A DNA stretch of 59,529 nucleotides, the filler included, from Candidatus Desantisbacteria bacterium CG1_02_49_89 (GTDB taxonomy: Bacteria > Desantisbacteria > UBA1551): NCBI GenBank assembly GCA_001871075.1. It is 6 parts of 6 records of this genome, joined end to end, with 100 filler letters (N's around TTAATTAATTAA, not from the genome) between each part and the next. Parts side by side here need not be neighbours in the genome. Positions count along the whole stretch, not along the records: positions 1 to 9,901 come from MNUP01000039.1; positions 10,002 to 19,556 come from MNUP01000117.1; positions 19,657 to 28,750 come from MNUP01000113.1; positions 28,851 to 41,327 come from MNUP01000017.1; positions 41,428 to 50,168 come from MNUP01000062.1; positions 50,269 to 59,529 come from MNUP01000044.1. One strand, written 5' to 3'. Below, one piece after another: positions 4,880-54,698 of the stretch (positions are counted from its first letter, which is position 1; every line of letters starts with the position of its first letter). The notes below the pieces were generated by a model, which ran no database searches, had not been told where the DNA came from, and was given only the letters and a program-made list of their open reading frames with translations. The position numbers and the translations under genes are program-made.

Positions 4880-4911
4880 CCCGCCCCTTCGGCGGGTCGC
4901 CGTAGTGGCAA
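4880..4911 (-). repeat. 32-nt hairpin micro-element inserted in a CACTGGN heptamer array
   Basis: Reverse complement TTGCCACTACGGCGACCCGCCGAAGGGGCGGG matches 22172-22203 and 54667-54698. Confidence 0.85.
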
Positions 4912-4977
4912 CCAGTGGCCAGTAGTCAGTTAAAAAGTTTTAAACTGGATGCTGGATACTGGTTACTGGATACTGAT

Positions 4978-5829
4978 TTATGGAATGAACTGATTTAGGA
5001 ATTTAAAGCCGAGGCGCAGGCCATCATCAAACCTTTCGCCCCAGAAAACCTGGTCTTCGTGCTCGATTATTACCGGGCCATTATAGCCGATATTACTGAG
5101 TGCCTTGAAAAATTCCTTCCAGTTAAGTTCTCCCCAGCCCGGGATCCTGTACCTCCACCAGCCGCTGCCGTATATTCCGGCCCTGCTCTGCACGTTCCTG
5201 AAGATCTCGGTGTCCTTCGCGTGGACAGAATATATGCGCTTCGAGAATTCGTAAACCGCGGCGATGTAATCGATCTCCTGCCAGTAAAGGTGCGAAGGGT
5301 CAAACTCAAGCCCCACGGCTTCCGACGGGACAGCGTCAAACAGGGCTTTCCAGGTGGCGGGAGTGATGGCAACGCTGCCTATCGTGAGCGGGTAACCCCC
5401 GGCGCAGGGCCAGTTTTCCATGCCGATCTTTATGCCGAACGAACTTGCCGCCTTCGCGTATTCACCGAACACCTCTTTGTAAACGGGCAGGTTACCCTCA
5501 AGATCTTTTGAAGGGTCGCCCAGCGGGCAGGTGGTAACCGCTACCGCGTCCATCTCGCTTGCTGCCTCAAGGACCCTGATGAAATATTTCATGTTCTCCG
5601 TGCGGTTCTTGGCGTCAGCGTCAAGATGCCTGAGAACGCACATCACCGTGCCTACCTCGATCCCGTTCTCCCCAAAAATAGCCCTGACCTCTTTCAACTG
5701 CTCCTTGCTCGTTTTGTTCAGGTCAAGCGAACTACCCGGGCCCATCTGGACCTCAAGGCATTTGAAACCCACCTTTTTAGCGAACTCAACCCTCTCCTCC
5801 GAGTAACCCGTAAGAAACCCAAGCCGCAT
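4978..5829 (-). CDS. Sugar phosphate isomerase/epimerase (xylose isomerase-like TIM barrel)
   Basis: GMENWP, LEFDPSHLYW, SVHAKD, RIPGWG, IIEHED metal-binding motifs. Confidence 0.9.
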   Translation of the reverse strand: MRLGFLTGYSEERVEFAKKVGFKCLEVQMGPGSSLDLNKTSKEQLKEVRAIFGENGIEVGTVMCVLRHLDADAKNRTENMKYFIRVLEAASEMDAVAVTTCPLGDPSKDLEGNLPVYKEVFGEYAKAASSFGIKIGMENWPCAGGYPLTIGSVAITPATWKALFDAVPSEAVGLEFDPSHLYWQEIDYIAAVYEFSKRIYSVHAKDTEIFRNVQSRAGIYGSGWWRYRIPGWGELNWKEFFKALSNIGYNGPVIIEHEDQVFWGERFDDGLRLGFKFLNQFIP

Positions 5830-5992
5830 ATTGCCTCCAATGCGTGTCAGAGTGTCTCCGAAGAGTCCGTATGCTCCGTCCTTTCGGAGTCATCGGACAA
5901 CGTGTCAGAGTGTCAACGCAACTGCAAGGATTTAATTTAAATTAATTCCATGTTTTTGCTCTGACACGCTGATACGCTGATACGTTGACACG

Positions 5993-8437
5993 TTATTTTA
6001 TTGCTTGCTCCAGCATATCGCACTCGGTTGCTCTGGGCGTTTTCTGGTCCATATCTATCATCAGGGTCTTTATTTCGTAAGGCTTAAAACGGACCCTGAA
6101 AGAACGCTTGAACCACGGAAGGCTTACGCGCGCGGTCCCGCCCTTTCCCCTTGTCTCGGTGAACCTCAGGATCACATTTTCCCCTTTTTCCGCTTTTTTA
6201 AAAACAGTTGTTGTCAAACCGGCAGGCGCCACCCTCGCGAACGAAACTTCCTTCGGCAAAAGACCTTCATGCGCGGGCTCTCTTCTCTCAATAAGCGGGT
6301 TGTTGAATTCGAAAGCGGTCTGCGGGATGCCTTTCTTCTGCCAGACGCCCTTGTGAGGGACCAGCGAATACCTGAACCTGTGCTCTCCCTGGTCGGTATA
6401 ACGGTATTCCACGCCGGGTTCCGGCTTCCTGGGGTCATGGAAAGCGAATATGGGCGACCTCAGCACGCTCATCCTGGCCTCGCTGCCGTGGATGCTGAAC
6501 CCGTATTTGCAGTCGTTAACAAGGGCTATGCCGTATTTCATCCTGCCGTTCTTCCTGCTCCTGGCGATTCCGGCTACGTCGATCCATGCCTGCCCCGGTT
6601 CTTCTTCCCCGTTGTTGGGCCTGGTGATCGTCCCGCCGGGAATATCGTAGGTTGTTTTCCCTGATTCAACCGCGAACGGGAATCCAACCTTCAATACCTT
6701 GTGTTTTTCATGCCAGTCCACAATTACCTCGAAATCTATCCTGGGCATCTTTTCGTAAAAGGAAATCTCCTGCTCAAGGGTCGAATTAAGGAACACGCTT
6801 TTTATCCTGATCTTTGCCCGTATCGGGCCCTGCTCAATTATTTCCGGTTTTCCCTGCATGATGAATTTACCCGTGACTTTATCATAAGCGGCGACGCCGT
6901 GGCTCCAGGTATCGCTCATGTCGTCCAGCACAAGCATTTCGTTCCCTTCCCTGCCCGGTAAAAGCATGCTCAGCCCGTTTGTTTTGTCAAAAAGATGCAT
7001 TATGCATCCCGTACGAGGATTAAGCTGCAGGAAGAAATACCTGTTCTCCATGCTGTATTGCGACACGCTGACCGATGGGACACGCCGCTTTTTCCTTCTC
7101 TTTGCCTGGCCGGTCACGCAGTACACGCTGAATCCGGTCGGAGGCACGTCCGCGCTGAAGATCAGCCTTTTTTTAATGCCGCCGAGTTCCCTTTTCTGGA
7201 ATGCCACACTTTTGCCCCCTGGTCCCAGGACGGAAAATCCCTCTCCCTCAATATCAACGCTCGCTGTCTCCTTCCTCTGCCATGAAGCCGGGTTGAAAAA
7301 TATGACGGGCTGTCCCGGGCCGGACGTGTCGGTTTTCTGTGAAATACTTTTAAGCGCCGTATCCAGCATTCCGCTGCCCGCGCTGAAAACCTCGTCGTAA
7401 TCCTTTCTGCAGTCATCGTAGGCTTCGGGAATGCTTGTCCCGCACATCACGTCATGGAACTGGTTGAAAAGAACCTTTTGCCACAGGCCCCTGATCTTTT
7501 CTCCCGGGTAGGGCAATATTTCAAGAAGGTACGCGGCAGAACTAAATTTTTCAGTTGCCTGCAGCAGGTTCTCCGCGTCCCTGTTCGCCTTTTTTATCCA
7601 GGAGACCACTGAATAACAGCCGCGCGCGTGGTGCTGCAGGTCATCCCTTACAACCTTAAATTTTTTTTTGGAATTCTGCCGCGCTGCCGCGAAGAACGCT
7701 TCGGGAGTGCTGAAAATCAACTTAATGCCGGATTTACCGTATTCCTTTATAGCCCTGATCTCTTCCCTTGACGGACCACCGCCGTGGTCACCCACTCCGT
7801 AAAAACACAGATCTTCATTAATGCCCTCGATTTTCTGGCTGCAGATCAAGTCAATTTTACTTTCAAGTTCTTCTTTTTTACCTGAAGTTCCGTATGAAAC
7901 CGGGAGCCTGGCGGTGAGCACACGGCTTTTATCCTGACTTTCCCATAGAAATAATCTGGATTCCAGCTTCTTCTCATTAGGGTCAGGCCGCATGAAAACA
8001 TAGTAATCGAAACCGCTCTTTTTCAGTATCTGTGGAAGACCGCGGTTGTGGCCGAACGAATCCACGTTGTACCCCACCTTCACGTCAACGCCAAATTTCT
8101 CCATGAAATACATTTTACCGTAAAGCCCGTGGCGCGCGAATGATTCGCCCGAAGGTATGTTGCAATCCGGCTGGACCCACCAGCCGTTCACGATATTCCA
8201 CCTGCCCTCTTTTACGTAATGCTTTATCTCCTCGAATAGCTGAGGGTCACTTTCCTCGGCCCACTTGTAAGTGGCTGCCTGACCCGCTGTAAAAACAAAA
8301 TCCGGGAACTCCTTCATGAATTCCACTGCCTGCCTGTAAGTCTTCAGGACTTCATCCCGGCCTTCTGCCCACCTCCACAGCCATACCGGGTCAATGTGCG
8401 CGTTGCCGATCATATGTATCGTGTAGTCATTCATCAT
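5993..8437 (-). CDS. Alpha-mannosidase, glycoside hydrolase family 38
   Basis: GNAHIDPVWLW, NVDSFGH, YGVGDHGGGP, NQFHDVMCGTS. Start moved to ATG 8437 behind a GAGGTG RBS. Confidence 0.93.
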   Translation of the reverse strand: MMNDYTIHMIGNAHIDPVWLWRWAEGRDEVLKTYRQAVEFMKEFPDFVFTAGQAATYKWAEESDPQLFEEIKHYVKEGRWNIVNGWWVQPDCNIPSGESFARHGLYGKMYFMEKFGVDVKVGYNVDSFGHNRGLPQILKKSGFDYYVFMRPDPNEKKLESRLFLWESQDKSRVLTARLPVSYGTSGKKEELESKIDLICSQKIEGINEDLCFYGVGDHGGGPSREEIRAIKEYGKSGIKLIFSTPEAFFAAARQNSKKKFKVVRDDLQHHARGCYSVVSWIKKANRDAENLLQATEKFSSAAYLLEILPYPGEKIRGLWQKVLFNQFHDVMCGTSIPEAYDDCRKDYDEVFSAGSGMLDTALKSISQKTDTSGPGQPVIFFNPASWQRKETASVDIEGEGFSVLGPGGKSVAFQKRELGGIKKRLIFSADVPPTGFSVYCVTGQAKRRKKRRVPSVSVSQYSMENRYFFLQLNPRTGCIMHLFDKTNGLSMLLPGREGNEMLVLDDMSDTWSHGVAAYDKVTGKFIMQGKPEIIEQGPIRAKIRIKSVFLNSTLEQEISFYEKMPRIDFEVIVDWHEKHKVLKVGFPFAVESGKTTYDIPGGTITRPNNGEEEPGQAWIDVAGIARSRKNGRMKYGIALVNDCKYGFSIHGSEARMSVLRSPIFAFHDPRKPEPGVEYRYTDQGEHRFRYSLVPHKGVWQKKGIPQTAFEFNNPLIERREPAHEGLLPKEVSFARVAPAGLTTTVFKKAEKGENVILRFTETRGKGGTARVSLPWFKRSFRVRFKPYEIKTLMIDMDQKTPRATECDMLEQAIK

Positions 8438-8569
8438 CTCACCTCTAACTATTATTTTTAAAATTCCTTGACTCATAGCTCATAATTAATCTCTGTATCT
8501 CAGTGGCTTCATTGAATATAGTCTATCCAGTATAACTCTTATTATATATTATTTATCTAAAAAAGCAAG

Positions 8570-8601
8570 AAAAATAAAACCCGCCAATCTTTATGGCGGG
8601 T
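8570..8601 (-). terminator. Intrinsic terminator after the PorV gene
   Basis: Minus strand ACCCGCCA-TAAAGAT-TGGCGGGT followed by TTTATTTTT. Confidence 0.7.
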
Positions 8602-8643
8602 CAAGACCAAGCACTCCTTCTTCTTTTAGGCTGGTTACAGCTA

Positions 8644-9564
8644 TTAGAACTTGGCGCCTACAGTTACCCTGTGCGTATAACCCAGGTCCCCGTAAGGAAC
8701 AAGGGCGTAATCTATGCCCAAGATGCCGATCTTAAAGCCGGCACCGCAAGTTAGGCCCGCAAGCGCCCCCAGGGTATTGTTTATCGCGCTGTTATACTTG
8801 TAACCTGCCCTTATGGCAAACACAGGATGGACCCAGTATTCAATACCTGCTCCCACAGCCCATATAGAATCAAGGATGGAGTAGTTCAGGTCAGATGATA
8901 GAGTAAGCTTGCTGTCAGCAAACTTATTGGCAATGCCGACCTTCAGGTTCATAGGCAAAGGGCTTGCCTCTGTGATGAACGGGGCTTCGTAGCCCATATT
9001 CTGCAGGGCAAGGCCCATAACCAGGCCTTCCTTGTTCAGCTTGTACTGCAGACCAATATCTGCGGCCACACCAAGCGCTGACTTGTCATCTAACTGCTGG
9101 TTGATGATCTTGACTGTGCCGCCAAGGTTCAGGCGTTCTGAGAGCGTCTTAGCGTATGATACGGCTATCGCCAGGTCATTTGCAGGCACTGACCCAAGCA
9201 GAGCTCCGGCAATATCCCTTCTTTCAATGTCTGTGATATACAGGTAGGTTATACCTGCGCCTATTGTTCCGCCAAGAGCCGGCTGGCAATATGCAAGATA
9301 CTCATACCTGATAGCCTGAAACCATTCTGTATGGGTAAAGGTTACCTGCTTACCTTCTGATAGGGACAGGCCGGATGGGTTCCAGAACAGGGCATTGATA
9401 TCATCTGCAACAGCGACAAAGGCTTCGCCCATTGCAACAGGGCGAGAACCTACACCAAGTTTAAGGAAGGTGGCGCCTGTGGTTCCGGGCCCGGCGGCAA
9501 ATAAGCTCAAAGCTGAAAGTTGAAAGGTGAAAGTTAATGCAATTACAAATATAATCTTTTTCAT
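8644..9564 (-). CDS. PorV/PorQ-family outer-membrane beta-barrel
   Basis: Signal peptide, FLKLGVGSRPVAMGEAFVAVADDINALFWNPSGL, DYALVPYGDLGYTHR, terminal Phe. Confidence 0.88.
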   Translation of the reverse strand: MKKIIFVIALTFTFQLSALSLFAAGPGTTGATFLKLGVGSRPVAMGEAFVAVADDINALFWNPSGLSLSEGKQVTFTHTEWFQAIRYEYLAYCQPALGGTIGAGITYLYITDIERRDIAGALLGSVPANDLAIAVSYAKTLSERLNLGGTVKIINQQLDDKSALGVAADIGLQYKLNKEGLVMGLALQNMGYEAPFITEASPLPMNLKVGIANKFADSKLTLSSDLNYSILDSIWAVGAGIEYWVHPVFAIRAGYKYNSAINNTLGALAGLTCGAGFKIGILGIDYALVPYGDLGYTHRVTVGAKF

Positions 9565-9606
9565 TTTTCCTTCATTTTTAATTTTACATTTTTAATTGAT
9601 GCGGCA

Positions 9607-9901
9607 TCACCGTATGATCATTATCTTGCCGATCTTTCTTTCCTTCGTATCATCTGTCAGGAAGTAGATGTAGACGCCGGAAGCGACTGGCTCATTCCAA
9701 TTGTTTATAACAGTCCAGACGTATGGATCTGTAGTTATGTCTGTCTGCTCAAACACAAGCTCCCCTGCTATGTTGTATATCCTGAGCAGGACGTTCAGGG
9801 TGCTGTAGAGCTTAAAACTGATGGCAGTGTGACCCTGGGACGGCTTGAACGGTACAGGGAATGCGTAAGCATCCTTAATACTCGGCGCTGCCTTGGGCAG
9901 A
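9607..9901 (-). CDS. C-terminal fragment of a protein ending in a T9SS type-A-like/FlgD-Ig sorting domain (not in ORF track)
   Basis: Hand translation: LPKAAPSIKDAYAFPVPFKPSQGHTAISFK...LRIYNIAGELVF...WTVINNWNEPVASGVYIYFL...IGKIMIIR*; truncated by the contig end. Confidence 0.85.
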
Positions 9902-10001
9902 NNNNNNNNNNNNNNNNNNNNNNNNNNNNNNNNNNNNNNNNNNNNTTAATTAATTAANNNNNNNNNNNNNNNNNNNNNNNNNNNNNNNNNNNNNNNNNNN
10001 N
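9902..10001. other. Artificial contig spacer
   Basis: N run containing TTAATTAATTAA (stop codons in all frames). Confidence 0.99.
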
Positions 10002-12059: not shown

Positions 12060-14594
12060 CTACCAGCGTAAAGTTTTCTGCCAGGCTTCCTTTAATTCAT
12101 AGATATCCGCGTTTATAATAAGCTTGCCGTTTAACCCGTAAACCTTGAAGCGTTTATCTTTTTTGACCTTTCCGATTACCGAATAAATCCCCCCGTTCCC
12201 CCCTTTAGAAAGGGGGGTTAGAGGGGATTTATTACCATTCATTATTTTCTCGAATTTTCTGCGGTTTTTCGGCTTTACTTCCGCCAGGAACCTTGAATTT
12301 GATTCTGAAAACAGTATCATATCGTTTCTTAAACTTTGACACGTTGCCTGCCCGCCAACGCTTGCTGGGCGGGACACGTTGACACGTTGACACTGTATTT
12401 CTGCTCCTAATCCTCCCGCAAAGGCCATTTCCGCGGCCGCAACAGCGAGTCCGCCTTCCGAGCAGTCGTGGCAGGAACGCACAATGCCTTCCCGGATCGC
12501 CTTCTGCAGTTTTTTCATCATTACTGCGGCTTTTCCCGGATTGACCTTAGGGACCATCCCCCCGTTTAATCCATTTACGGAATAGTAAATGGAGCCGCCC
12601 AGTTCATCATATGTCTCGCCAAGAAGGTATATCAGGTTACCCGGGGATTTCAGGTCCATTGAAACTACTTTCCCTATGTCCGGGATCACGGAAATGGCGG
12701 ATATGAGCAGGGTGGGCGGTATAGAGATCTTTTTTCCCGAATCCTGATCAAAGTATTCATTATTCAGGCTGTCCTTGCCGGATATGAAAGGCGTTCCGTA
12801 TGCTTTTGCCATGTCATAACATGCCTGCGACGCCCTTACAAGCCCTGCAAGCTGCCCGGGTTTTTCAGGGCTTCCCCAGCAGAAATTATCAAGCAGCGCG
12901 CATTTTTCCAGGCTGCCTCCCGCGCAGATATTGTTCCTGAGGGCTTCATCGATCGCGGACGCAGCCATCCAGTAGGGGTCCAGCTTTCCGTAACTTGGGT
13001 TTATCCCGTTTGATATCACGATCCCGCGGTTAGATCTGAAAAGCGGTTTAATAACGCATGCATCCCCGGGCCCGTCATTTTCTTTACCCTGAAGCGGTTT
13101 GAGCACCGTTCCTGCCTGGACTTCGTGGTCATACTGCCTTATGATCCATTCCTTGCTGGCAACAGTAGGGTGGGAGAGTATCTTTTTAAGTATTTGTTCC
13201 GGGTTCTCCGCTCCGACGCCACGTCGGAGCGAGACCTCGCCCCGACAGAGTCGGGGCGGGCGGGTTTCGGGCGCGTCCCAGACTGCTTTTCTCCTGAATC
13301 TCGGCACTCCGTCGTGCAGGAAGTCCATTTCCAGCTCGCAGACCTTCTCGCCTTTATAGAGCAGGACCAATTTTTTATCGTTTGTGAATTCACCCAGGAC
13401 CGTCGCTTCCACGTTCTCGGCTTTGAATACCGCCATTATTTCATCAAGTTTATGCGGCGGGACAGCGAGCACCATCCTTTCCTGCGCTTCAGAAACCCAG
13501 ATCTCCCAGGGGGTAAGCCCCGCGTATTTGAGAGGCGCTCTTTCAAGATAAACGCGGGCGCCTATATCTTTTCCCATTTCACCCACGGCTGACGAAAATC
13601 CTCCAGCGCCGCAGTCCGTGATCGCGTTATAAAGGTTTTTATCCCTTGCCTGAAGTATGACGTCTGTCGCTTTCTTCTCAACTATAGGATTTCCGATCTG
13701 CACTGCGCTTACCTCGGTGTCCTTGGCAAGCTCAACCGATGAAAATGTCGCGCCGTGTATCCCGTCCCTGCCTGTCCTGCCGCCTACCGCGACGATCAGG
13801 TCGCCGGGTTTCGTTTCCTTGAAACACTTGTCTTTTGGCATTATGCCCACGGTCCCGCAATAGACAAGGGGATTGCACACGAACCCGTTGTCAAAGATCA
13901 CCGCGCCGTTGGCAGTGGGAATTCCCATCCTGTTCCCGTAGTCCCTGACCCCGGCTACAACGCCCTTGCAGATCCTTTTCGGGTGCAGCACTCCCCCGGG
14001 CAGTTTTTCATGGGGGAGATCAGGAAAGCCGAAGCAAAAGATGTCGGTGTTCATAATGGGTTTTGCGCCCAGCCCCACGCCCAGTATATCCCGTATAACC
14101 CCTCCGATACCTGTTCCTGCTCCTCCGTACGGCTCAAGCGCGCTGGGGTGGTTATGCGTTTCTATCTTGAACGCGACCGCGTTGTCCCTGTCAAATTCTA
14201 TGATCCCGGCGTTGTCCTTAAAAACAGATATGCACCATTTTTTATCCAGTTCCTTAGTTGCCTTCATCACTGTCTGTTTCAGCAGATTGTCTATTATCGT
14301 CGTACGTCGTAAGTCGTTCGTCGTACGTCGTTTTTCGGTGGACCGTGGGCCGTGGACTGTGGACTGCTCCTGATATTCAATAATGCCGCGGAACGTCTTA
14401 TGCACGCAGTGCTCGCTCCAGGTCTGTGCAAGGGTTTCGAGCTCAACGTCAGTAGGGTTCCTTGCTGCTTTGCGGAAGTAGTCCATTATCGCATGCATTT
14501 CTTCAAGGTTCAGGGACAGGATGCCTTCCTTGCTTATCCGCGTCAACTCGGTGTCATCCGCGCCCAGTATGTCGATAATCTTAACGTTTTCCAT
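12060..14594 (-). CDS. purL: Phosphoribosylformylglycinamidine synthase subunit PurL (four in-frame repeat inserts)
   Basis: QTWSEHC, KIETHNHPS, TDCGAGG, SEAQERM, ISGKDS, CHDCSEGGL, FSES. Confidence 0.96.
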   Translation of the reverse strand: MENVKIIDILGADDTELTRISKEGILSLNLEEMHAIMDYFRKAARNPTDVELETLAQTWSEHCVHKTFRGIIEYQEQSTVHGPRSTEKRRTTNDLRRTTIIDNLLKQTVMKATKELDKKWCISVFKDNAGIIEFDRDNAVAFKIETHNHPSALEPYGGAGTGIGGVIRDILGVGLGAKPIMNTDIFCFGFPDLPHEKLPGGVLHPKRICKGVVAGVRDYGNRMGIPTANGAVIFDNGFVCNPLVYCGTVGIMPKDKCFKETKPGDLIVAVGGRTGRDGIHGATFSSVELAKDTEVSAVQIGNPIVEKKATDVILQARDKNLYNAITDCGAGGFSSAVGEMGKDIGARVYLERAPLKYAGLTPWEIWVSEAQERMVLAVPPHKLDEIMAVFKAENVEATVLGEFTNDKKLVLLYKGEKVCELEMDFLHDGVPRFRRKAVWDAPETRPPRLCRGEVSLRRGVGAENPEQILKKILSHPTVASKEWIIRQYDHEVQAGTVLKPLQGKENDGPGDACVIKPLFRSNRGIVISNGINPSYGKLDPYWMAASAIDEALRNNICAGGSLEKCALLDNFCWGSPEKPGQLAGLVRASQACYDMAKAYGTPFISGKDSLNNEYFDQDSGKKISIPPTLLISAISVIPDIGKVVSMDLKSPGNLIYLLGETYDELGGSIYYSVNGLNGGMVPKVNPGKAAVMMKKLQKAIREGIVRSCHDCSEGGLAVAAAEMAFAGGLGAEIQCQRVNVSRPASVGGQATCQSLRNDMILFSESNSRFLAEVKPKNRRKFEKIMNGNKSPLTPLSKGGNGGIYSVIGKVKKDKRFKVYGLNGKLIINADIYELKEAWQKTLRW

Positions 14595-15224: not shown

Positions 15225-15303
15225 CTTTTCCTCAAAGAATGATTACGGTGATTTTTTTAAAACTGATTACAGTGATATTAAAATAATCACTGTAATCATA
15301 TTT

Positions 15304-22092: not shown

Positions 22093-22256
22093 CATTAGTA
22101 AAATAATTAAAGGCAAATCCCGGGCAACCGGGACGCGCAAAGCCAAGGGTCCTTAAAAAATGATTACAGTGTCGCCCCTACGGCGACCCGCCGATGAGGC
22201 GGGATTTTAGCTGAGATTACAGTGATCATATAAGGGGACAGCCGGGCTGCCTGTGG
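22093..22256 (+). ncRNA. c-di-GMP-I (GEMM) riboswitch aptamer with an approximately 75-nt insertion in P3
   Basis: GGCAAA-TCCCGG-GCAA-CCGGGA-CG-CGCAAAGCCAAGGGTCCTTA ... TAAGGGGACAGCCGGGCTGCC matches the GEMM consensus on both sides of the insert. Confidence 0.85.
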
Positions 22257-22369: not shown

Positions 22370-24991
22370 ATGATGAAACAAAATAGATTGCTAATTGCTG
22401 GGATAATGATGCTGGCGGTCCTTACGCTCTGCGCGGGAGAAGCGGGAGCTATGAGCGCTTTCTCCGTGGGCGGGAACGGTGAGATCTATACCTACAGGGG
22501 ATTGCTGGACCATTTCTTCCAGGAATCCGGATACACGCTTGAAAGCCGGCTTTACCTGGACAGCGAATACGGACAGTGGCTGCAGCTCGCGGAGTTCAAA
22601 ACATTTAACAGTGTTGGTACTTTGGTTAAGTACCAATCATACACCCAGGCCCAGCTCCAATCAGGGCCGATCATAATGTTGACAGACAATGAAGCGGCAA
22701 GCGGCAACTATACCGTTGAGATCCTTATTCACACCCCGCTGAAACCGCTGGGCACGCAGATACTTGACGTTGAGGGCACGATCGAGGGAACCATACAGGG
22801 TTCGGGAAATCCCGCAGGTACCATTATCGGCTGGGGAGTTAATGACTGCCCCGACTTCGCTAAGGGCAGGGAATATCCCGGCTGGTTCACGTACAGGCTG
22901 CGCCTCGGCGGATGCATATGGATAGCGCCCGCGATCCACGTGCGCAACACCAACGAAATTATCTACAGCACTGACGCGCTTGCCGGTTACGGCCTGGACG
23001 GATCATTCTATTATCCGGGCAGGGCTTTCATAGCGCGCTTGAAAGACGTGCTTGAGGACAATCCGGGTTCAACCGCTGACGATCATCCTTTTTCCTACGC
23101 CATTTTCGGCAACGACAAGATAAACGTTCTGCAGTTCACTGGAAATTCCTACACGGACAGTTATAATTCGGACATAGGCCCTTACAGCGTGAGCCGCAGC
23201 AGCTCAGGCGGAAGCATACGCAGCAATTCCTCGATACTCCTGACAGGCAACGTAGTTATAAACGGGGACGCGACACCTGGCCCCGGCGGGCAGGTGGACC
23301 TGAGCAACAACGCCAGGGTCACGGGCTCAACCGCCCCTGCAGGGAATTTCGTGAATTTCCCTCCTGTAAAAGACTTCACTTCAACTGAAAACCTTTCAAT
23401 AGCCGGGAACAGCTCACTCACTCTCAACACAGGGGCTTATTACTATAACTCGGTGAGCGTTACAGGCAATGCCGCGCTTTATATAAACGGAAAGGTCGAG
23501 ATCTACTGCGCGGGTGATTTCATCGCCGCAGGGAACGGGGTGGTGAACAATGACGGCCTGCGCGCAGGGGTCTGCTCAAACCTTTCGGTTTATGTCAGCG
23601 GTTTGAACGCGGAGATCCCGGGTAACGGGAAGTTCTTCGGCACGATTTACGCGCCCAGCGCGACTGTTGAAGTAAAGGGGAACGGCAACCTTTACGGTTC
23701 CATAATCGGCCGCAAGGTCAAGGTCAACGGCAACGCCGCCATACACTGGGACAGAGCACTTTTGAAGAAAGAGGTGCCTGGATGGTGGGACCCATACAGC
23801 AATTCATACGTAACAGCGTGGGAGGACCTGCAGTCAGTTGTAGGCAACGACCGCGACTATGATGACATCAACTACCACATTACGTTCAGCCTTGCGAATC
23901 CTGTTCCGGGCGAAGCGAAGGCGATGGTAACCACTCCGAAGAACGGCCAGACAATTGACGGGAACGCTGTCAGCATCGTCGCAGAATCCAATGAAAAAAC
24001 CTGCTCGGTGCAGTTCCAGTTCAGGGCAAAGGGCAGCGGGCCGTGGTCAGACCTGGGATTCCTTGATAACGCAATACCATATTCGGCGAAGCTTAACGCG
24101 AGTCTGCTCAGTGAGGGAGAATACGAGCTGCGCGCGATGGCTTTTGACAAGAACGGCAACTGCGAACCGGTCCCGGACTACATAACGGTGGCAGTCGCTC
24201 ACGCGGATGCCGACATACAGGAAGGAAATAACGGCGGGGTGGTCTGCAAGAAGCAGAAGGTTACAGCCGCAGAGGACTGCGATGTAACGCTTGCTGACGG
24301 GACAAAGGTATATATACCCTATAATGCACTCAGCGAACCTGCGACTTTAAGCGTGAACGTGATCAGCCAGGACAGCATCCGCGGTTCTTTGCCGAAGAGC
24401 GGGTCAGGCCTCTCGCCCATAGGGGTTTTCAGGAGTTTCTCGCTTTCCAGCGGCGAACAGGCGTTCAAGAGGAACGTGCGCATTTCCATTCCCTATCCTG
24501 ACGTGAACCGGGACGGTAAGGTTGACGGCTGCAATGTCCCGGCGGGAAAGCTGGGTATATTCTGGCTGAACGAGAAGACCGGTAAATGGGAGGAAGTATC
24601 AGCCGGCAAGCTCACAGCATCAGGGCTTGCCCAGGCAGACGCTGCGGACGGGACGCTTGAAGCAAGCGTCAGCCATTTCAGCATTTACGGATTGATGGTA
24701 AAGGGGATGGCAACAGACCTTTCTTCGGTGAAGATCGGACCAAATCCGTTCAAGCCGGCTACTGTTCCAAATATAACTTTTGACGGTATGACGAACGGCG
24801 CAACTGTTAAAATATTTAACCTTGCTGGGGAACTTGTGTTCAGCGCAGAGGACACGGATAATAACGGAATTGTAACATGGGATGGAACGAACGCTGCGGC
24901 GGAAGAGGTAGCGAGCGGCGTTTATTACTACGCGATAACCGACGCGAACGGCAACAAGCCCGCCACCGGCAAGTTCCTTCTGATACGCTAA
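22370..24991 (+). CDS. Large secreted multidomain protein with C-terminal T9SS type-A-like/FlgD-Ig domain
   Basis: Signal peptide; GN-rich beta-solenoid (IYAPSATVEVKGNGNLYGSIIG); WEDL...DRDYDD; Ig-like domain; ZU5-like domain ending SHFS; CTD GPNPFKP...KIFNLAGELV...WDG...VASGVYYY...KFLLIR. Confidence 0.85.
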   Translation: MMKQNRLLIAGIMMLAVLTLCAGEAGAMSAFSVGGNGEIYTYRGLLDHFFQESGYTLESRLYLDSEYGQWLQLAEFKTFNSVGTLVKYQSYTQAQLQSGPIIMLTDNEAASGNYTVEILIHTPLKPLGTQILDVEGTIEGTIQGSGNPAGTIIGWGVNDCPDFAKGREYPGWFTYRLRLGGCIWIAPAIHVRNTNEIIYSTDALAGYGLDGSFYYPGRAFIARLKDVLEDNPGSTADDHPFSYAIFGNDKINVLQFTGNSYTDSYNSDIGPYSVSRSSSGGSIRSNSSILLTGNVVINGDATPGPGGQVDLSNNARVTGSTAPAGNFVNFPPVKDFTSTENLSIAGNSSLTLNTGAYYYNSVSVTGNAALYINGKVEIYCAGDFIAAGNGVVNNDGLRAGVCSNLSVYVSGLNAEIPGNGKFFGTIYAPSATVEVKGNGNLYGSIIGRKVKVNGNAAIHWDRALLKKEVPGWWDPYSNSYVTAWEDLQSVVGNDRDYDDINYHITFSLANPVPGEAKAMVTTPKNGQTIDGNAVSIVAESNEKTCSVQFQFRAKGSGPWSDLGFLDNAIPYSAKLNASLLSEGEYELRAMAFDKNGNCEPVPDYITVAVAHADADIQEGNNGGVVCKKQKVTAAEDCDVTLADGTKVYIPYNALSEPATLSVNVISQDSIRGSLPKSGSGLSPIGVFRSFSLSSGEQAFKRNVRISIPYPDVNRDGKVDGCNVPAGKLGIFWLNEKTGKWEEVSAGKLTASGLAQADAADGTLEASVSHFSIYGLMVKGMATDLSSVKIGPNPFKPATVPNITFDGMTNGATVKIFNLAGELVFSAEDTDNNGIVTWDGTNAAAEEVASGVYYYAITDANGNKPATGKFLLIR

Positions 24992-26536: not shown

Positions 26537-26584
26537 AAGGCGCTAAATCCGCCAAAGCATTAGTGGCGGACAAGCGCTTTTTTT
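26537..26584 (+). terminator. Terminator or attenuator just upstream of the rhs gene, with a hairpin micro-element in its loop
   Basis: AAGGCGCT...AGCGCTTT plus T-tract; loop contains TCCGCCA...TGGCGGA. Confidence 0.6.
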
Positions 26585-37309: not shown

Positions 37310-37431
37310 ATAGCATCAAACTTAATAGAGTATGTTATGTGGTATTTTAGTTGTTTCAGTTTTTACGATGCACGAAGAACAGCTTGCCCGCCAATCTTGC
37401 TGGGCGGGACGCACGACTTAATGGAGGCCAC

Positions 37432-38043: not shown

Positions 38044-38250
38044 AATCCAAAAGATTTCCACGAAATCCGCGCCTACGCCAAGGCTTCGGCGGGCAGGCAC
38101 GAAAGTATCACGAAAACACGAAAGAAATCACCACTGAGGCACTGAGGCACGGAGAAGTACTTTTGGCTGAAAGCTTGACTCTTGATACTTAAAATAATCA
38201 CTGTAATCATCAGTTAAAATCACCGTAATCATTTTTGAAAGGAGTTAAAA

Positions 38251-49389: not shown

Positions 49390-49444
49390 ACAGCAAAATG
49401 ATTATTTACAGGGATCTTCGAGCGGGATTTAAACTACTTCTTTT

Positions 49445-49494: not shown

Positions 49495-49526
49495 TTGTAG
49501 CATATTTTATAGAAAGGGAGAAAAAG

Positions 49527-50168
49527 ATGAAAAAAATAATTGCAGTTGTGGTTTTGGGCCTGCTTGCGGCGGGAAGCGCGCACGCCCTGGATATAAACGG
49601 GTTCCTGAAAACGGACTGGCGGGTCAAGGCTGACAGCACTGCCGCGCTCACCTGGAACGAAAACGTGGTTAACCTGAAACTGAAATCCGCGGTCGCTTCA
49701 GGAGCAAGCGGGTTCGCGGAACTGGAACTGAAAAACACCGGGTTCCCAACAGCAGGTAACCTGAACGATCTGAGCCTTTACGATAAATCTAAGGCAGCGC
49801 CCTGGACGCTTGAGCTTAAGGAAGGATACGTGGATATCTCGAACCTTTTTGTCGAAGGCTTTGACCTGCGCGCGGGAAAACAGCGCATCACCTGGGGCAC
49901 AGCGGACAGGTTCAACCCCACGGATAACCTGAATCCGCTTGACCTTTCTGACCTGACTGATTTCGGAAGGCGGGTCGCGAACACTTCGCTGAAAGCCACG
50001 TATTACATAGGTAATTTCTACGCGCAGGGTGTTTTCATCCCGGTGTTCACGCCTGGTGTCCTGCCCGCAAATTGGATGTCAATGTACCCGATGCCCTTGA
50101 TGGCGGGTGTCACAATCAGAAATATGGATTTAACAGTTACGATGCCTGAAGACAGACTCGAAAGCTCA
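49527..50168 (+). CDS. Outer-membrane beta-barrel (DUF1302-like), 3' truncated
   Basis: Signal peptide, LKEGYVD, DLRAGKQRITWGTAD.FNPTDNLNP. Confidence 0.75.
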
Positions 50169-50268
50169 NNNNNNNNNNNNNNNNNNNNNNNNNNNNNNNN
50201 NNNNNNNNNNNNTTAATTAATTAANNNNNNNNNNNNNNNNNNNNNNNNNNNNNNNNNNNNNNNNNNNN
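50169..50268. other. Artificial contig spacer
   Basis: N run containing TTAATTAATTAA. Confidence 0.99.
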
Positions 50269-50376
50269 ACCAAAGGGAGCGTGGCAATCTCGATTTTTAG
50301 GTCAAGATTGCTTCGTCGTTAACACTCCTCGCAATGACAGCCCAAATGTAAAGATCTGTTAGAGACAATGCACTAG
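50269..50376 (+). mobile_element. MITE family A, right part; terminus variant matching the IS630 end
   Basis: Ends GAGACAATGCACTAG; the reverse complement begins CTAGTGCATTGT, identical to 28474-28485. Confidence 0.85.
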
Positions 50377-50390
50377 GATCAGGACTTTGT

Positions 50391-51593: not shown

Positions 51594-51672
51594 GTAAGCT
51601 CCTGAGATTAAATTTTATTGATTAATTAGAACCTAATTAGTTTAAATCTAATTAGCAAGCTATCCTATAGAA

Positions 51673-52953
51673 TTAGATGGCAGGCGTAGGAACATCCTTC
51701 CATGCTGTGGATTTCTCAACTTCCTTCATGCTTACGATCTCGCCTGTTTCTACGTTTATATCAATAAACCCGACTGGTTCCCTTGTGGTATTAAAAGAAA
51801 GCAGCCCTTTTCCTGAAATATGCTTTCCACGATTGTTGTCTACCTGCACAAATATAACCCGTCTATACGAACAAACTTTGCAATCCAAATTTTCTTTGTT
51901 AATCCCTATAGGACAATGGTGTCTTCTTGCAAAAACAGGGTCAACATTATGCATTTTGGCCATATGCAGAGCCGGGGATGCTCTTAAATGGCCAAAAGGA
52001 TGTAACACCCATTCAGTAATCATGGATAACGTATGGCTTTGTTTGAAAAGATGGAAATCAGAGCCTGTATTGGCGATCATGCCCTGCATTACATAGTCAG
52101 CCGGCATCAAATAACACAGGTAGTCTTTTTTGCTGTTAAGGAAACCTATCCCTTCCTTGTCCTCACTGATAGAGATATCGTTAAGTACTTTCACGGCATG
52201 GCTGTTGTCTTCAGGAAGGATGGATATAAGAGTGACATTGTTTCTGTTCTCAAAAGGAATCTGATGCAAGGTCACTGTCCTGAGGATAAAACCGGTTCCG
52301 AGGGTCAAAAATATAAAGACCAGCGGAATTAAAAAATACTTTATATCCGTTGCGGGCATTGTCTTTCCAAGAAATTTTTCGATAGAACCCGGGAAAAACA
52401 TACCCGTTTTATTCATATATTCAGCATACGTTTCTCCGTATTGGCCCAACATCCTTCTTTCCTCGTTCTTTGCAAGAAAATAATAAAGTATAAACATCAG
52501 GGATAATGACGCAAGAACAAAGAACCTTGGCCACAATATGGCCATACCTATTCCCCATATCCCTAAAGCCACATATTGTGGATGGCGGATATATGTGTAT
52601 AATCCTCTGACAACTGCCCCGCGCTTGAATATCTTGTTAAAATATACCTGGAAAGCGCAGAAAAAGAAAGTAACGGCGCCTATTATAAAAAACACAGAGC
52701 CTAATATACGGATAGTCCTTAAGAATAGGGTTGGGGGTAAAATCATATGGGGCAGGAAGAACGTTGTAAGCCATCCTGTTATCGCGTATTGATTCAACCA
52801 TTTGAATACCGGGTTAAAAACAGAATAAAAGAAAAATGCAAAAGGACTTATCATTATCATAACCTCTAATGCTATGATGACAAAAAATGCTATGCCTCCA
52901 TATGCTGAAACGCTCTTCAACCATTCAGTTACTTTTGTTTTATTCGTGCTCAT
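51673..52953 (-). CDS. Isoprenylcysteine carboxylmethyltransferase/PEMT-family membrane protein with long C-terminal domain
   Basis: GLYTYIRHPQY, AKNEERRM, YAEYMNKTGMFFP. Start ATG 52953 after AGGAGG. Confidence 0.8.
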   Translation of the reverse strand: MSTNKTKVTEWLKSVSAYGGIAFFVIIALEVMIMISPFAFFFYSVFNPVFKWLNQYAITGWLTTFFLPHMILPPTLFLRTIRILGSVFFIIGAVTFFFCAFQVYFNKIFKRGAVVRGLYTYIRHPQYVALGIWGIGMAILWPRFFVLASLSLMFILYYFLAKNEERRMLGQYGETYAEYMNKTGMFFPGSIEKFLGKTMPATDIKYFLIPLVFIFLTLGTGFILRTVTLHQIPFENRNNVTLISILPEDNSHAVKVLNDISISEDKEGIGFLNSKKDYLCYLMPADYVMQGMIANTGSDFHLFKQSHTLSMITEWVLHPFGHLRASPALHMAKMHNVDPVFARRHHCPIGINKENLDCKVCSYRRVIFVQVDNNRGKHISGKGLLSFNTTREPVGFIDINVETGEIVSMKEVEKSTAWKDVPTPAI

Positions 52954-53015
52954 AAGCTCCTCCTTAAAACTTTTTTTATCAGATGCCAAACGTACTTTGA
53001 TCTTTACAAAGCTCC

Positions 53016-53396
53016 TTAATTACTTTTCCCCGGCATGGTTGTGTTCTTTTTTTTCTTTTCCTGCTCTGCTATTATTTTAATGTATTTCTCCGGGTTCTTT
53101 TTGAATTGTTCAACACAATGAGAACAGCAGAAATTATATATTTTGCCCTTGTACGTATATTTAGTTCCTTTTCCTTTCTCTAATTTCATCCCCATAACCG
53201 GGCAATAATCATTCCCAACCTTAACCAATTTCTGAGTTTTTTCCTTTAATGACATACTATCGGTTTTTGTCCCGGTATTAGTTTCATTATATGAATTTTT
53301 CTTCTGCATACTCCAGCAGTGTGCTCTGCCAATAGTTAGCAGTGCCCCAAACATGAATATCAAAACTAACAAAATAAATAAAATTTTCTTGCGCAT
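53016..53396 (-). CDS. Secreted YHS/TRASH-domain protein
   Basis: CPVMGM...[24 protein letters not shown]. Confidence 0.88.
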
Positions 53397-53423
53397 TTTA
53401 ACCTCCAGGCAAAAGCGGGTTTG

Positions 53424-54638
53424 TCACTCGTAGCGCAACGCTTCGATCGGGTCCATGTCGGCCGCCCTGCGCGCCGGGTAATACCCGAAGAACACGCCGA
53501 TCGCTATCGCGAAGCCGAAAGACAGGAAGATCGAGCCGGGGGAAACAAATATCGCCCATTTTGCCAGCGTTGCTATAAGGATGGACACGATAACACCCAC
53601 GCATATGCCGATTATCCCGCCGAACAGGCTCAGCATCAATGCTTCTATTATGAACTGGAGCAGGACGTCGAACCTTTTCGCGCCCACAGCCATCCTTATG
53701 CCGATCTCCCTCGTGCGCTCTGTGACCGACACGAGCATTATGTTCATTATGCCTATGCCGCCCACAAGAAGCGAAACAGAAGCAACGCTTCCCAGGAGCA
53801 TTGTCATAGTGGTTGCCATTGATGTCGCCGCGGCCATTATGTCGGCCATGTTCATTATCTGGAAATCGTCGTCCTTACCAGCGCCTATGCGGTGGCGCTG
53901 CCTCAGCAGCTCTGTGACCTGCTGCTGGACCAGTGCGATAGCATCGCTGCTTACAGCGGATACCTGTATGTTGTTTAGGAAGGTAACTCCCGTAAGTCTT
54001 TTCATCACGGTGGTGTACGGCGCGAGTATGGTATCGTCCTGGTCCCCGCCGAAACCCGACCCCTTCTTCTCGAGCACGCCGACGATCTTGAACTGCATTT
54101 TATTGACGCGGACGTTTTTGCCGATGGGGTCGGCGCTTCCGAACAGGTTTTCGGCTACCGTTTTGCCGATAATGCATACTTTCGCGGCATCGCGGACCTC
54201 CTGCTCGTTGAACGGCACCCCGCTTTCGACTTTCCAGTCCCTTATCTCAAGGAAATCGATATTGGAGCCCTGGATCCTGGTGTTCCAGTTCTGGTTCCCG
54301 TAGATAACCTGGCTCTGGGTGCTTACCATGGGGGCAACATAAGCTGCGGAAGTTATCTCCTTTTTTATCGCAAGCGCGTCTACTTCTTTGAGCGAGGTCC
54401 TTGAGCCCCAGCCGCCGTGCACGCCGCGTTCATTGGCGCTGCCGGGAAAGATCTGTAGTATGTTATTGCCCAGGCTTGACATCCGGTCCATTATTGCCTT
54501 TTTCGCCCCGGTGCCGACGCTAAGCATGGCTATAACCGCGCCGACGCCTATGATTATGCCCAGCATTGTAAGGATGGAGCGCATTTTGTTCTGGACCAGG
54601 ACTTTGTATGACATTTCAATGGTGCTTATCAGATCCAT
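53424..54638 (-). CDS. MacB/FtsX-family ABC transporter permease
   Basis: NKMRSILTMLGIIIGV, GGIGIMNIMLVSVTERTREIG, DPIEALRYE. Confidence 0.94.
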   Translation of the reverse strand: MDLISTIEMSYKVLVQNKMRSILTMLGIIIGVGAVIAMLSVGTGAKKAIMDRMSSLGNNILQIFPGSANERGVHGGWGSRTSLKEVDALAIKKEITSAAYVAPMVSTQSQVIYGNQNWNTRIQGSNIDFLEIRDWKVESGVPFNEQEVRDAAKVCIIGKTVAENLFGSADPIGKNVRVNKMQFKIVGVLEKKGSGFGGDQDDTILAPYTTVMKRLTGVTFLNNIQVSAVSSDAIALVQQQVTELLRQRHRIGAGKDDDFQIMNMADIMAAATSMATTMTMLLGSVASVSLLVGGIGIMNIMLVSVTERTREIGIRMAVGAKRFDVLLQFIIEALMLSLFGGIIGICVGVIVSILIATLAKWAIFVSPGSIFLSFGFAIAIGVFFGYYPARRAADMDPIEALRYE

Positions 54639-54666
54639 TGCTTTTCCTCTGAGAATGATTACGGTG

Positions 54667-54698
54667 TCGCCCCTACGGCGACCCGCCGAAGTGGCGGG
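54667..54698 (+). repeat. 32-nt hairpin micro-element in a GATTACRGTG repeat
   Basis: TCGCCCCTACGGCGACCCGCCGAAGTGGCGGG; same element and same host repeat as inside the riboswitch. Confidence 0.87.

Follow-up and report, generated by a model that had tools for sequence, protein, structure and literature searches.

The window analysed here is 59,529 nt of DNA joined from six records of the Candidatus Desantisbacteria bacterium CG1_02_49_89 assembly (GCA_001871075.1). It contains copies of two very short hairpin modules, which we call F1 and F2, together with unfilled versions of one kind of site that F1 occupies. F1 is a 32-nt double hairpin, TCGCC-N5-GGCGA-CCCGCC-N5-GGCGGG. The first-pass annotation had placed it at three positions, one of them inverted, and all three coordinates hold, the third with a single mismatch. 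The F1 copies in the window, the surrounding features and the unfilled target sites are as follows (^ marks the point of insertion):

22102-22254, + strand: c-di-GMP-I riboswitch aptamer, whose second hairpin contains a GATTAC pair in its apical loop
22172-22203, + strand: exact copy of F1, splitting a GATTACAGTG^ATTTT pair (pair span 22162-22224)
54667-54698, + strand: exact copy of F1, splitting a GATTACGGTG^ATTTT pair (pair span 54657-54720)
4880-4911, - strand: F1 with one stem mismatch (TTGCC for TCGCC), within a CCAGTGG/CCAGTGT heptamer array
1933-1965, + strand: empty GATTACGGTG^ATTTT (GATTACRGTG) pair, an unfilled target
15241-15274, + strand: empty GATTACGGTG^ATTTT (GATTACRGTG) pair, an unfilled target
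38199-38230, - strand: third empty GATTACRGTG pair, missed in the first-pass annotation

Across the 2.48-Mb genome F1 occurs in 35 exact copies, compared with none in a reversed control, and 14 additional copies with 1-3 mismatches bring the total to 49 (the control gives 0 even at up to 4 mismatches). As DNA, the copy at 22172-22203 is predicted to fold into two adjoining hairpins (-12.9 kcal/mol, z -4.2), and the fold of the copy at 54667-54698 has the same energy (-12.9 kcal/mol, z -3.4). There are two levels of nesting at 22102-22254, with F1 inside a GATTAC pair that is itself inside the riboswitch loop. The inverted copy at 4880-4911 has the same orientation relative to its array strand as other copies in CTGG^ACACTGG. 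With a crude ORF mask (86% of the genome), which is not a gene-level measure, the modules are depleted in ORFs, and 15/35 F1 copies fall inside them.

The hairpins of F1 have been kept through compensatory changes. In a set of 33 sequences, mostly chosen via the protein described below and with windows selected by likeness to the consensus (12 of the 42 distinct windows were left out), 98.9% of cells pair, compared with 30-54% in slid controls; three pairs are changed on both sides (9 cells), a result reached by 0/500 shuffles. The two halves were also considered as a single long 13-bp hairpin, a structure rejected because the loops are complementary in 0/35 copies here (4.2 expected from shuffles) and in 16/105 copies in other genomes (17.9 in shuffles). 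The ends of F1 are not inverted repeats of each other and no target is duplicated, so that F1 differs from a MITE on both counts.

Insertion of F1 is precise, in one orientation and free of duplication. Genome-wide, G precedes 34 of the 35 exact copies and A follows all 35. On the 5' side of the target, information amounts to 1.8-2.0 bits at position -1 and nowhere else exceeds 0.9 bits, and the boundary is ambiguous by one base, G^...^A being equivalent to ^G...G^GA. When exactly 32 nt are removed, the resulting 8+8 junction is found elsewhere in the genome for 11/35 copies, whereas six cuts shifted by 1-2 nt each restore 0/35. For 12 copies embedded in arrays, the array phase is kept only by removing exactly 32 nt (mean junction periodicity 0.32-0.68 on the 32-nt diagonal, with 0.56-0.68 for zero or leftward shifts, and 0.13-0.41 off the diagonal). 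Filled and empty sites can be compared directly in the GATTACRGTG pairs of the genome, of which 136 are spaced 21-23 nt (empty) and five are spaced 53-55 nt; of the latter, four contain F1 and the fifth a different hairpin of 32 nt.

Much of the first-pass description thus survives genome-wide counting. It had proposed oriented insertion at a G^A step without target-site duplication, with both filled and empty forms in view, and its two empty pairs near 1933 and 15241 are confirmed, with the pair at 38199-38230 as a third. The flanking profile that it suggested collecting for all genome copies is non-random and follows the G/A rule. It had also pointed to simple repeats as the places of insertion, and most F1 and F2 sites are indeed in simple repeats or hairpin tips, the preferred ones being 7-8-nt tandem arrays, the tips of hairpin repeats, D-loop-like pieces of tRNA copies and a riboswitch loop. 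The F1 and F2 sites very probably arose through genuine insertion of a mobile module.

Exact filled and empty forms could likewise result without dedicated machinery, from a few ancient insertions spread by composite copying and by gene conversion between look-alike arrays; arrays with like units are scattered across the genome and offer the homology. The caveat that one ancestral composite had been copied whole, already raised in the first pass, applies to subsets of the copies: about nine share a ...CACAG^F1^AGACTACC context that has no empty form, and two lie in a duplicated segment of contig 117. It does not apply to the whole family, since the 35 exact copies have 32 distinct 8+8 contexts. 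These represent at least 15 different sequence contexts, including non-repeat DNA as well as arrays whose units are unrelated (CACGGAGA, GGACACT, TTTGACC, GATTACRGTG and others), with the G/A rule and the orientation constant over all of them. Copying without dedicated machinery is an improbable explanation.

Positions 700-9901 of the window were compared with assembled contigs from groundwater and aquifer samples, and three of these samples (X6, X12 and X20) carry the filled form both from 3825 onward and at 4880-4902. The other samples gave no empty allele, although contigs cannot show absence. One array-like joint links 3804 to 3852 with 8 other letters between, its shorter side being only 20 letters; a look-alike array elsewhere is its most likely source, and it does not establish an empty allele.

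F2 is a 27-nt module with a single hairpin, present in 31 genome copies compared with 0 in the control. It and other hairpins of the CCGCC type are found in the window as follows:

12347-12373, + strand: F2, 27 nt, inside a TTGACACG octamer array; its removal restores the array phase
37383-37408, + strand: 26-nt core of F2 within a GACGCAC-type array; excision points to 37381-37407 as the probable unit
3814-3852, + strand: long form of F2, its loop replaced by a 21-nt CCGCC-ACGAATATT-GGCGG hairpin (3823-3843)
2037-2055, no strand assigned: CCGCC-N9-GGCGG hairpin, again of this stem family, at the tip of a larger repeat in which it is nested
8581-8599 and 26549-26569: further CCGCC-type hairpins, matched by stem family

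All 31 F2 copies are preceded by G and 24 are followed by A. For this 26-27-nt relative of F1 the first-pass coordinates are correct, but the boundaries needed revision: excision of a 27-nt unit restores 14/31 copies (other cuts 0-4), and that unit begins 2 nt earlier and ends 1 nt earlier than first described, placing the insertion just before GA. The long form at 3814-3852, previously listed as an insertion too, is a loop replacement and no clean insertion. It folds into one stacked hairpin (-13.1 kcal/mol, z -4.0), and the same nested F2/CCGCC composite occurs three times in the genome. The CCGCC...GGCGG stem itself occurs 288 times in the 2.48 Mb, and CCGCC-type hairpins are located within 150 nt of tRNAs in 19 cases, compared with about 2.1 expected. 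Nested hairpins of this type (F3-type) are probably the same kind of copied module as F1 and F2.

Outside this genome F1 is found at more than 100 loci, mostly in Patescibacteria. A search of the 60 nearest genomes, a set with a single member of the same order, did not find it, and a collection of viral contigs gave 0 matches and thus no hint of a phage vector in that collection. A limited literature search found no description of an F1-like element in Patescibacteria.

In these other genomes F1 is physically linked to a gene for a GIY-YIG nuclease, a single-domain protein of 81-92 aa. Starting from the motif, a same-strand GIY-YIG domain begins 4-41 nt downstream of F1 at 18 of the 105 non-high-GC loci; it is upstream on the same strand at 2/105 and on the other strand at none. 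Solo copies are common as well: 85/105 are without a GIY-YIG ORF within 300 nt and have many differing contexts, which again argues against composite copying. Starting from the protein, we took the best 80 metagenome relatives of the F1-linked ORF, 76 of them with enough upstream DNA. F1 (up to 3 mismatches, ending 0-80 nt before the domain) is upstream in 51/76, and it lies within 250 nt after the domain in 16/76 and on both sides in 12/76. A complete tRNA is just downstream on the same strand in 69/80 relatives, and tRNA-Gln makes up 65 of 72 such tRNAs.

One complete cassette consists of a tRNA 5' piece ending ..GGTAG^F1^GACA, the ORF, tRNA-Gln, a second ..GGTAG^F1^GACAG and the rest of the split tRNA. 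The tRNA sequences flanking F1 are spare pieces beside complete tRNAs; the alternative that F1 is an intron-like insert in working tRNAs was discarded, as excision yields a tRNA across the junction at 0/109 loci. Among the cassette-borne copies in Patescibacteria the left flank is GGTAG^ in 33/51 and the right flank ^GACA in 33/51. With flanks so often alike, the cassette copies of F1 could go back to a single old composite passed on together with the cassette, which is a point for composite copying.

This genome has seven GIY-YIG ORFs of 82-114 aa matching Pfam PF01541, two of which, on contigs 81 and 74, are 43-52% identical to the F1-linked clade. Several adjoin tRNAs, with a broken tRNA copy that contains hairpins of the F2 or F3 type. 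F1 lies within 5 kb of a GIY-YIG ORF in 0/35 cases here, and the linkage is therefore one seen solely in other genomes. For the F1-linked ORF the nearest solved relatives are UPF0213 proteins (PDB 1ywl and 1zg2) and Slx1, and NCBIfam gives nothing beyond a weak group-I-intron-endonuclease match for the GIY-YIG ORF.

In all 18 downstream cases F1 precedes the GIY-YIG gene as part of its 5' leader and is on the coding strand. This position and the compensatory changes in the stems would also suit immobile hairpins that arose or were kept by selection as functional sites, whether RNA stabilisers, terminators or protein-binding sites; passages of PMC11893778 describe Ssn motifs as modulating transformation in Neisseria. 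Such sites, however, would not explain why an identical 32 nt interrupts unrelated arrays in phase, why exact empty forms exist or why one copy is within a riboswitch loop. Further, no Rfam family matches F1 and no T-run follows its hairpins, and a function acquired after insertion may exist but would leave the origin unexplained. We regard immobile functional sites as very improbable.

Oriented, duplication-free insertion beside a fixed base had been likened in the first-pass annotation to single-strand (HUH) transposition. F1 and F2 would then be miniature derivatives of IS200/IS605 or REP elements, peeled off as a single strand by a Y1 (HUH) transposase and pasted 3' of a short target, and the two side-by-side hairpins of F1 do resemble a left and a right end. 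Just one 5' target base is fixed, which may speak against this, the targets of IS200/IS605 being 4-5 nt. The recommended search for Y1 transposases produced candidates, with ten PF01797 matches in the genome (one IS200-like and about eight RAYT/TIRYT-like), but a tie to F1 is not supported. All the Y1 genes with judged flanks have differing hairpins of their own, nine here and eight in five Patescibacteria genomes, the tenth match here being cut by a contig end. The IS200-like gene (contig 83) has CCCCGCGG...CCGCGGGG hairpins on its flanks, which do not resemble F1 and F2. A Y1-like ORF is found within 300 nt at 0/109 F1 loci in other genomes (positive control 9/9). RAYT-like genes are present in 5/5 F1-rich Patescibacteria genomes, but this co-occurrence is uninformative because Y1 genes are also present in 61/101 genomes of one Patescibacteria class, in which F1 occurs in 4/201.

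REP and REPIN sequences are described as short GC-rich hairpins, often paired and nested in palindromes, and REP/IS200-type elements are thought to move single-stranded and without duplication, according to passages of Bertels and Rainey (2011, PMC3116915) and PMC3733652. In the latter (Di Nocera 2013), GTAG is given as the REP tag cut by RAYT. The resemblance lies in the short, GC-rich, nested hairpins and in the Y1 genes of this genome. GTAG precedes 39/106 F1 copies in other genomes but 0/35 here, and F1 and F2 flank no Y1 gene. Further, the two stems of F1 differ and its loops are never complementary (0/35), so it can form no long hairpin of the REPIN type. Transposition by a Y1 enzyme is thus an unlikely source of the modules.

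On balance we favour, by a modest degree, F1 and F2 as tiny gene-less hairpin modules that are copied to new sites, their spread on single-stranded DNA being aided by GIY-YIG nucleases. The F1 copies in this genome are most likely solo, non-autonomous recognition or terminal hairpins of an Ssn-like single-strand nuclease cassette. They behave much as Nostoc SDR and REP/SRM repeats do, while belonging to none of these groups. For the GIY-YIG nuclease to be the enzyme behind the insertions, we would put the chance at slightly below even. Each insertion adds just the module (32 or 27 nt), in one orientation, at a ...G^A... step, and the preferred target is DNA that readily folds or turns single-stranded. 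A putative nuclease, of which this genome encodes seven, would recognise or cut F1 in single-stranded DNA, and the paste step would use the nuclease plus host replication or repair. GIY-YIG nucleases are not, to our knowledge, able to join DNA, so this step is without a known enzyme. In many Patescibacteria of like habitat, the GIY-YIG gene is lodged beside tRNA-Gln with F1 in front and sometimes on both sides.

The nuclease Ssn is a single-domain GIY-YIG enzyme described as cutting single-stranded DNA beside its own flanking hairpin repeats (passages of Chenal et al. 2025, Nat Commun 16:2388, PMC11893778). As portrayed there, it shares with the F1-linked system a protein of about 90 aa, a gene bordered by copies of a hairpin repeat that is both abundant and oriented, with the IS-like order motif-gene-motif, and many solo motif copies scattered in the genome. 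The junction G followed by the TC of F1 also gives an xGTC tag, which is HGTC in 23/35 copies here and 101/106 elsewhere. The Ssn motif is one that flanks its gene, as F1 does in other genomes but in 0/35 cases within 5 kb here. F1 was rejected as a published Ssn-related motif (SRM): the degenerate search sequence, as given in passages of PMC11893778, fits 0/35 F1 copies, and it is not enriched in the genome (10 matches compared with 20 in the reversed control). There are other differences. F1 is a double hairpin, its linked protein is closest among solved structures to UPF0213 proteins, and its clade is tied to tRNA-Gln, whereas PMC11893778 has 0 occurrences of tRNA; the passages of that paper considered here discuss motif accumulation without filled or empty insertion sites.

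Homing GIY-YIG genes resemble the F1 cassette in a different way, a small gene being lodged at a tRNA gene with a spare tRNA piece left beside it. Free-standing GIY-YIG homing endonuclease genes, such as the Seg genes of phage T4, occur beside tRNA genes. The F1-linked proteins, however, are without the DNA-binding extension that homing enzymes have, and the F1 cassettes carry a conserved hairpin module that also has many solo copies.

The modules bear on how the smallest bacterial repeats (REP, SDR, NTS/SRM) get copied. Filled and empty sites that correspond exactly, a target rule of one base and an unvarying orientation make the insertion event directly readable, F1 can be linked at the sequence level with one particular small nuclease gene in hundreds of environmental genomes, and the question can now be taken to the bench with a 32-nt oligonucleotide and a 90-aa protein. 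That such modules settle inside regulatory repeats, inside tRNA copies and in the loop of a riboswitch matters for annotating uncultured genomes and for judging how such inserts affect gene control. A broader and rather doubtful proposal is that single-domain GIY-YIG single-strand nucleases and host repair mobilise modules of up to 32 nt, with the hairpin-nuclease-tRNA cassette as the full element and with exchange across phyla. If true, miniature elements would have a third means of spreading, in addition to the DDE and HUH enzymes. The cassette would split tRNA-Gln genes yet supply a spare copy, and exchange would take place among groundwater bacteria, namely Patescibacteria and this candidate phylum. 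The spread of the Nostoc SDR and of CGTC-type repeats could also be accounted for.

The SDR4-6 repeats of Nostoc punctiforme and other Nostocaceae are reportedly gene-less hairpin modules of 21-27 nt, said to nest inside one another as well as inside tandem heptamer repeats. We know of no transposase identified for SDR and of no linked nuclease gene reported for them. F2 (26-27 nt, 31 copies) is similar in size, and F1 (32 nt, 49 copies) is slightly above the SDR range; both are nested precisely, and without duplication, in tandem heptamers and other repeats. F1 differs in being a 32-nt double hairpin with a linked nuclease gene (in other genomes), and the N. punctiforme plasmid pNPUN01 (354 kb) has a single occurrence of the CCGCC...GGCGG stem, compared with 288 in the 2.48-Mb genome. 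The host is not a cyanobacterium, given its T9SS genes, its small number of HIP1 sites (only 85) and its nearest genomes (one same-order relative among 60). It is by the stem count in pNPUN01 and the host phylum, rather than by SDR sequences, that F1 and F2 are set apart from the SDR families. According to a citing paper (PMC5861425), SDR were found nowhere outside Nostocaceae. In a passage of PMC4390886, SDR5 is located between bases 3 and 4 of GCGATCGC, likewise at a G^A step.

F1, a 32-nt double-hairpin module (TCGCC-N5-GGCGA-CCCGCC-N5-GGCGGG), and F2, its 27-nt single-hairpin relative (CYTGCCCGCC-N7-8-CTGGGCGGG), are both dispersed through the source genome. As single-stranded DNA, F1 is predicted to fold as a pair of neighbouring hairpins (-12.9 kcal/mol, z -3.4 to -4.2). 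Thirty-five exact copies are present, versus none for the reversed pattern, and 14 additional copies have one to three stem mismatches (control 0 at up to four mismatches). Collecting the flanks of the exact copies, as proposed in the first-pass annotation, gives G before 34 of 35 and A after all 35; with identical contexts collapsed, 32 distinct 8+8 contexts are left. Most copies are hosted by tandem arrays whose 7-8-nt units are unrelated to one another (CACGGAGA, GGACACT, TTTGACC, CTTGATA, GATTACRGTG), in which F1 orientation is constant relative to the G/A strand. F2 has 31 copies (control 0), with G before every one and A after 24. The coordinates of the first-pass annotation were all correct when the window was re-checked; the long F2 form that it lists at 3814-3852 has a 21-nt hairpin in place of its loop, a replacement rather than a simple split, and this hairpin belongs to a third (CCGCC...GGCGG) family that also caps many larger hairpin repeats.

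The insert is exactly the F1 module, in fixed orientation and with no target duplication, as had been proposed. This follows from three tests. Among 12 copies clearly embedded in arrays, array phase is preserved only when precisely 32 nt are taken out. Exact excision yields a 16-mer found elsewhere in the genome for 11 of the 35 copies, versus 0/35 for every one of six cuts displaced by 1-2 nt. Finally, the filled and empty GATTACRGTG sites described earlier recur genome-wide: 136 pairs have the empty spacing of 21-23 nt and five are spaced at 53-55 nt, four of these holding F1 at the same G|A. The fifth holds another 32-nt hairpin, of ACCCT...AGGGT type, at that step (contig 21, about 10590, minus strand), and thus the site accepts more than one module family. 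For F2, the excision test moves the 5' boundary two bases and the 3' boundary one base leftward, giving a 27-nt unit placed immediately before GA, and excision restores 14 of 31 copies; the F1 boundary carries the same one-base ambiguity.

GATTACRGTG itself occurs 350 times in the genome (control 1), mostly as the direct pairs 21-23 nt apart; it could be a module of promoter or operator type, or else a further mobile unit. Three of the window's pairs, at 1933, 15241 and 54657, lie about 10-25 nt upstream of opposite-strand start codons. Features of the window concerned are:

1933-1965, GATTACRGTG pair
15241-15274, GATTACRGTG pair
38199-38230, GATTACRGTG pair
22102-22254, plus strand, c-di-GMP-I riboswitch aptamer (48.9 bits, gathering score 35)
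22370-24991, 873-aa ORF downstream of the aptamer, C-terminal end resembling PorZ

A nested repeat (GATTAC pair plus F1) enlarges the loop of the aptamer's second hairpin by about 75 nt.

The hairpin structure of F1 is under constraint. We aligned 30 upstream modules chosen by their proteins (see below) with three window copies, leaving out 12 of 42 distinct windows that were too divergent or had nested inserts; 98.9% of cells pair, in windows whose selection by consensus likeness favors structure. Three pairs change on both sides (nine cells), one of them being CG in 27 modules, UA in four and AU in two. None of 500 shuffles reaches the observed level; in slid controls, pairing is 30-54%. Both loops take their pentamers from one pool, in opposite orientations, and are complementary in 0 of the 35 genomic copies, versus 4.2 expected; F1 is therefore two small hairpins, and a single long hairpin was rejected.

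F1 is not private to this genome. With one genome scanned for each prokaryote species, sampled in listing order like the metagenomes so that counts are lower bounds, exact F1 is found in at least 109 stretches. Four of the 109 listed are high in G+C and chance-like; the other 105 are mostly from Patescibacteria metagenome-assembled genomes (MAGs), with local G+C of 25-61%. G precedes 103 of these 105 copies, and the next base is A in 50, G in 31, T in 18 and C in six. The distribution is patchy: five small genomes have 3-14 copies each, only four of 201 genomes sampled from one class have any, and none was found in the 60 genomes nearest to the source or in a viral contig collection.

Alongside this precise, oriented insertion and hairpin constraint there is linkage to a gene. 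At 18 of the 105 listed loci, a GIY-YIG domain starts 4-41 nt downstream of F1 on the same strand; two loci have the domain upstream instead, again on the F1 strand, and none has it on the opposite strand. The linked ORFs encode 81-92 aa, with a median mutual identity of 61% and 43-52% identity to two ORFs of the source genome; their nearest solved relatives are UPF0213 proteins. Starting instead from the protein, we took the best 80 of at least 569 metagenome relatives, 76 having sufficient upstream DNA. F1 (up to three mismatches) ends 0-80 nt before the domain at 51 of the 76, lies within 250 nt after it at 16 and is on both sides at 12. Of the 51 upstream copies, 34 are preceded by a D-loop-like ..TAAYGGNAG and 33 are followed by GACA. 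A complete tRNA lies just downstream on the same strand at 69 of the 80 loci, and 65 of 72 tRNAs downstream of the ORFs are tRNA-Gln. One locus has the whole cassette: a spare tRNA front (..GGTAG|F1|GACA), the ORF, a complete tRNA-Gln, ..GGTAG|F1|GACAG and the remainder of the split tRNA. Removing F1 gives a tRNA across the junction at 0 of 109 listed loci; F1 thus sits in spare tRNA pieces, and insertion into working tRNAs is ruled out. The cassette-borne F1 copies may be one inherited composite.

This 81-92-aa clade, from groundwater Patescibacteria (metagenome loci L136-L215, with L134 and L133) and with a spare 5' piece of the downstream tRNA in front of it, has the look of a selfish cassette that seeks out tRNA-Gln and leaves the tRNA intact. 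In some cassettes (L150, L157, L139, L142; L193, L213) F1 has an extra hairpin in one loop or is doubled in tandem, and at two loci it is inverted in the D-loop piece.

The source genome has seven small GIY-YIG ORFs, likewise lodged at tRNAs. In one example, a broken tRNA-Cys copy, whose D-loop holds an F2-like module and which has a third-family hairpin past the anticodon, is followed by the ORF and an intact tRNA-Cys. CCGCC-type hairpins number 19 near tRNAs versus 2.1 expected, about 9-fold. No F1 lies within 5 kb of a GIY-YIG ORF here, and so all F1 copies in this genome are solo.

Chenal et al. (2025; PMC11893778) showed that Ssn proteins, single-domain GIY-YIG nucleases of about 94 aa, cut single-stranded DNA but neither duplex DNA nor RNA, and do so beside an abundant, oriented hairpin repeat; copies of this repeat flank the nuclease gene in an IS-like motif-gene-motif layout, and homologues differ in specificity. 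Since F1 and its linked ORF share this layout, and the junction G plus the TC of F1 reproduces the xGTC tag, F1 and F2 most likely represent the hairpin motif of Ssn-like cassettes, present as solo copies. However, none of the 35 genomic F1 copies matches the published search sequence for the Ssn-related motif, which is not enriched in this genome (10 matches versus 20 in the control). Two observations given above also count against this reading: the nearest solved relatives of the linked ORFs are UPF0213 proteins, and the F1 copies of the cassettes may all descend from one composite. The modules would use single-stranded DNA to spread, entering G/A steps in sequences prone to fold or slip, with the nuclease presumably taking part. 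No GIY-YIG enzyme is known to join DNA, and the joining would therefore fall to host replication or repair.

A TGTC-tagged hairpin, GTCATTGCGR...GCAAY, forms 120 units with tips of variable length in the source genome, nine having a CCGCC...GGCGG tip hairpin, and copies flank the contig 55 GIY-YIG ORF. It is the genome's more classical Ssn-motif-like family, and it too does not fit the published search sequence.

The first-pass annotation had instead likened the insertion to transposition by HUH (Y1) enzymes, and this link is not supported. At none of the 109 listed loci is there a Y1-like ORF within 300 nt of F1, although the same profile finds 9/9 controls. The suggested search for candidate transposases does give ten matches to PF01797 in the source genome (one IS200-like, the rest RAYT/TIRYT-like), on the following contigs:

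Y1_Tnp matches: contigs 83, 13, 100, 38, 80, 114, 23, 111 and 51

Every Y1 gene examined has hairpins or REP arrays of its own on both sides, and none is bracketed by F1 or F2. The IS200-like gene has hairpin ends reading CCCCGCGG, four others of about 230 aa lie between inverted GGGAC-type repeats (TIRtron-like), and the RAYTs of contigs 23 (two in tandem) and 111 (one) have arrays of their own REPs on both sides. Eight RAYT-like genes in five F1-bearing Patescibacteria genomes likewise have their own hairpins rather than F1 or F2. In the class where four of 201 genomes have F1, 61 of 101 have Y1 genes.

Among known repeats, the small dispersed repeats (SDRs) of Nostoc are closest in behavior: they are nested in heptamer arrays and precisely inserted. 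The F1/F2 stem family is, however, essentially absent from a 354-kb Nostoc punctiforme plasmid. PMC4390886 places SDR5 at the G|A step within GCG|ATCGC, and PMC5861425 reports SDRs in Nostocaceae only. F1 and F2 also resemble REP/REPIN and CGTC-type repeats (PMC3116915, PMC3733652), yet fail their defining tests. Outside the supplements of the Ssn paper, whose motifs per genome might be relevant here, the literature searched gave no description of the F1/F2 module, of its G/A rule beyond cyanobacteria or of the hairpin-nuclease-tRNA-Gln cassette.

The source genome is a draft MAG of 2.48 Mb in 150 contigs (48.9% G+C, 93.5% completeness), six of which, with N spacers between, make up the 59.5-kb window. 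Type IX secretion parts are among its genes, the 60 nearest genomes searched include a single member of the same order, and its DNA is present in groundwater and aquifer metagenome runs. The sequence at 1-60 of the window recurs at 23 places in the genome, mostly contig ends, and a 173-aa ORF at 100-621 (minus strand) has an ORF6N domain; the region 1-621 (minus strand) is a multi-copy element at which the assembly breaks.
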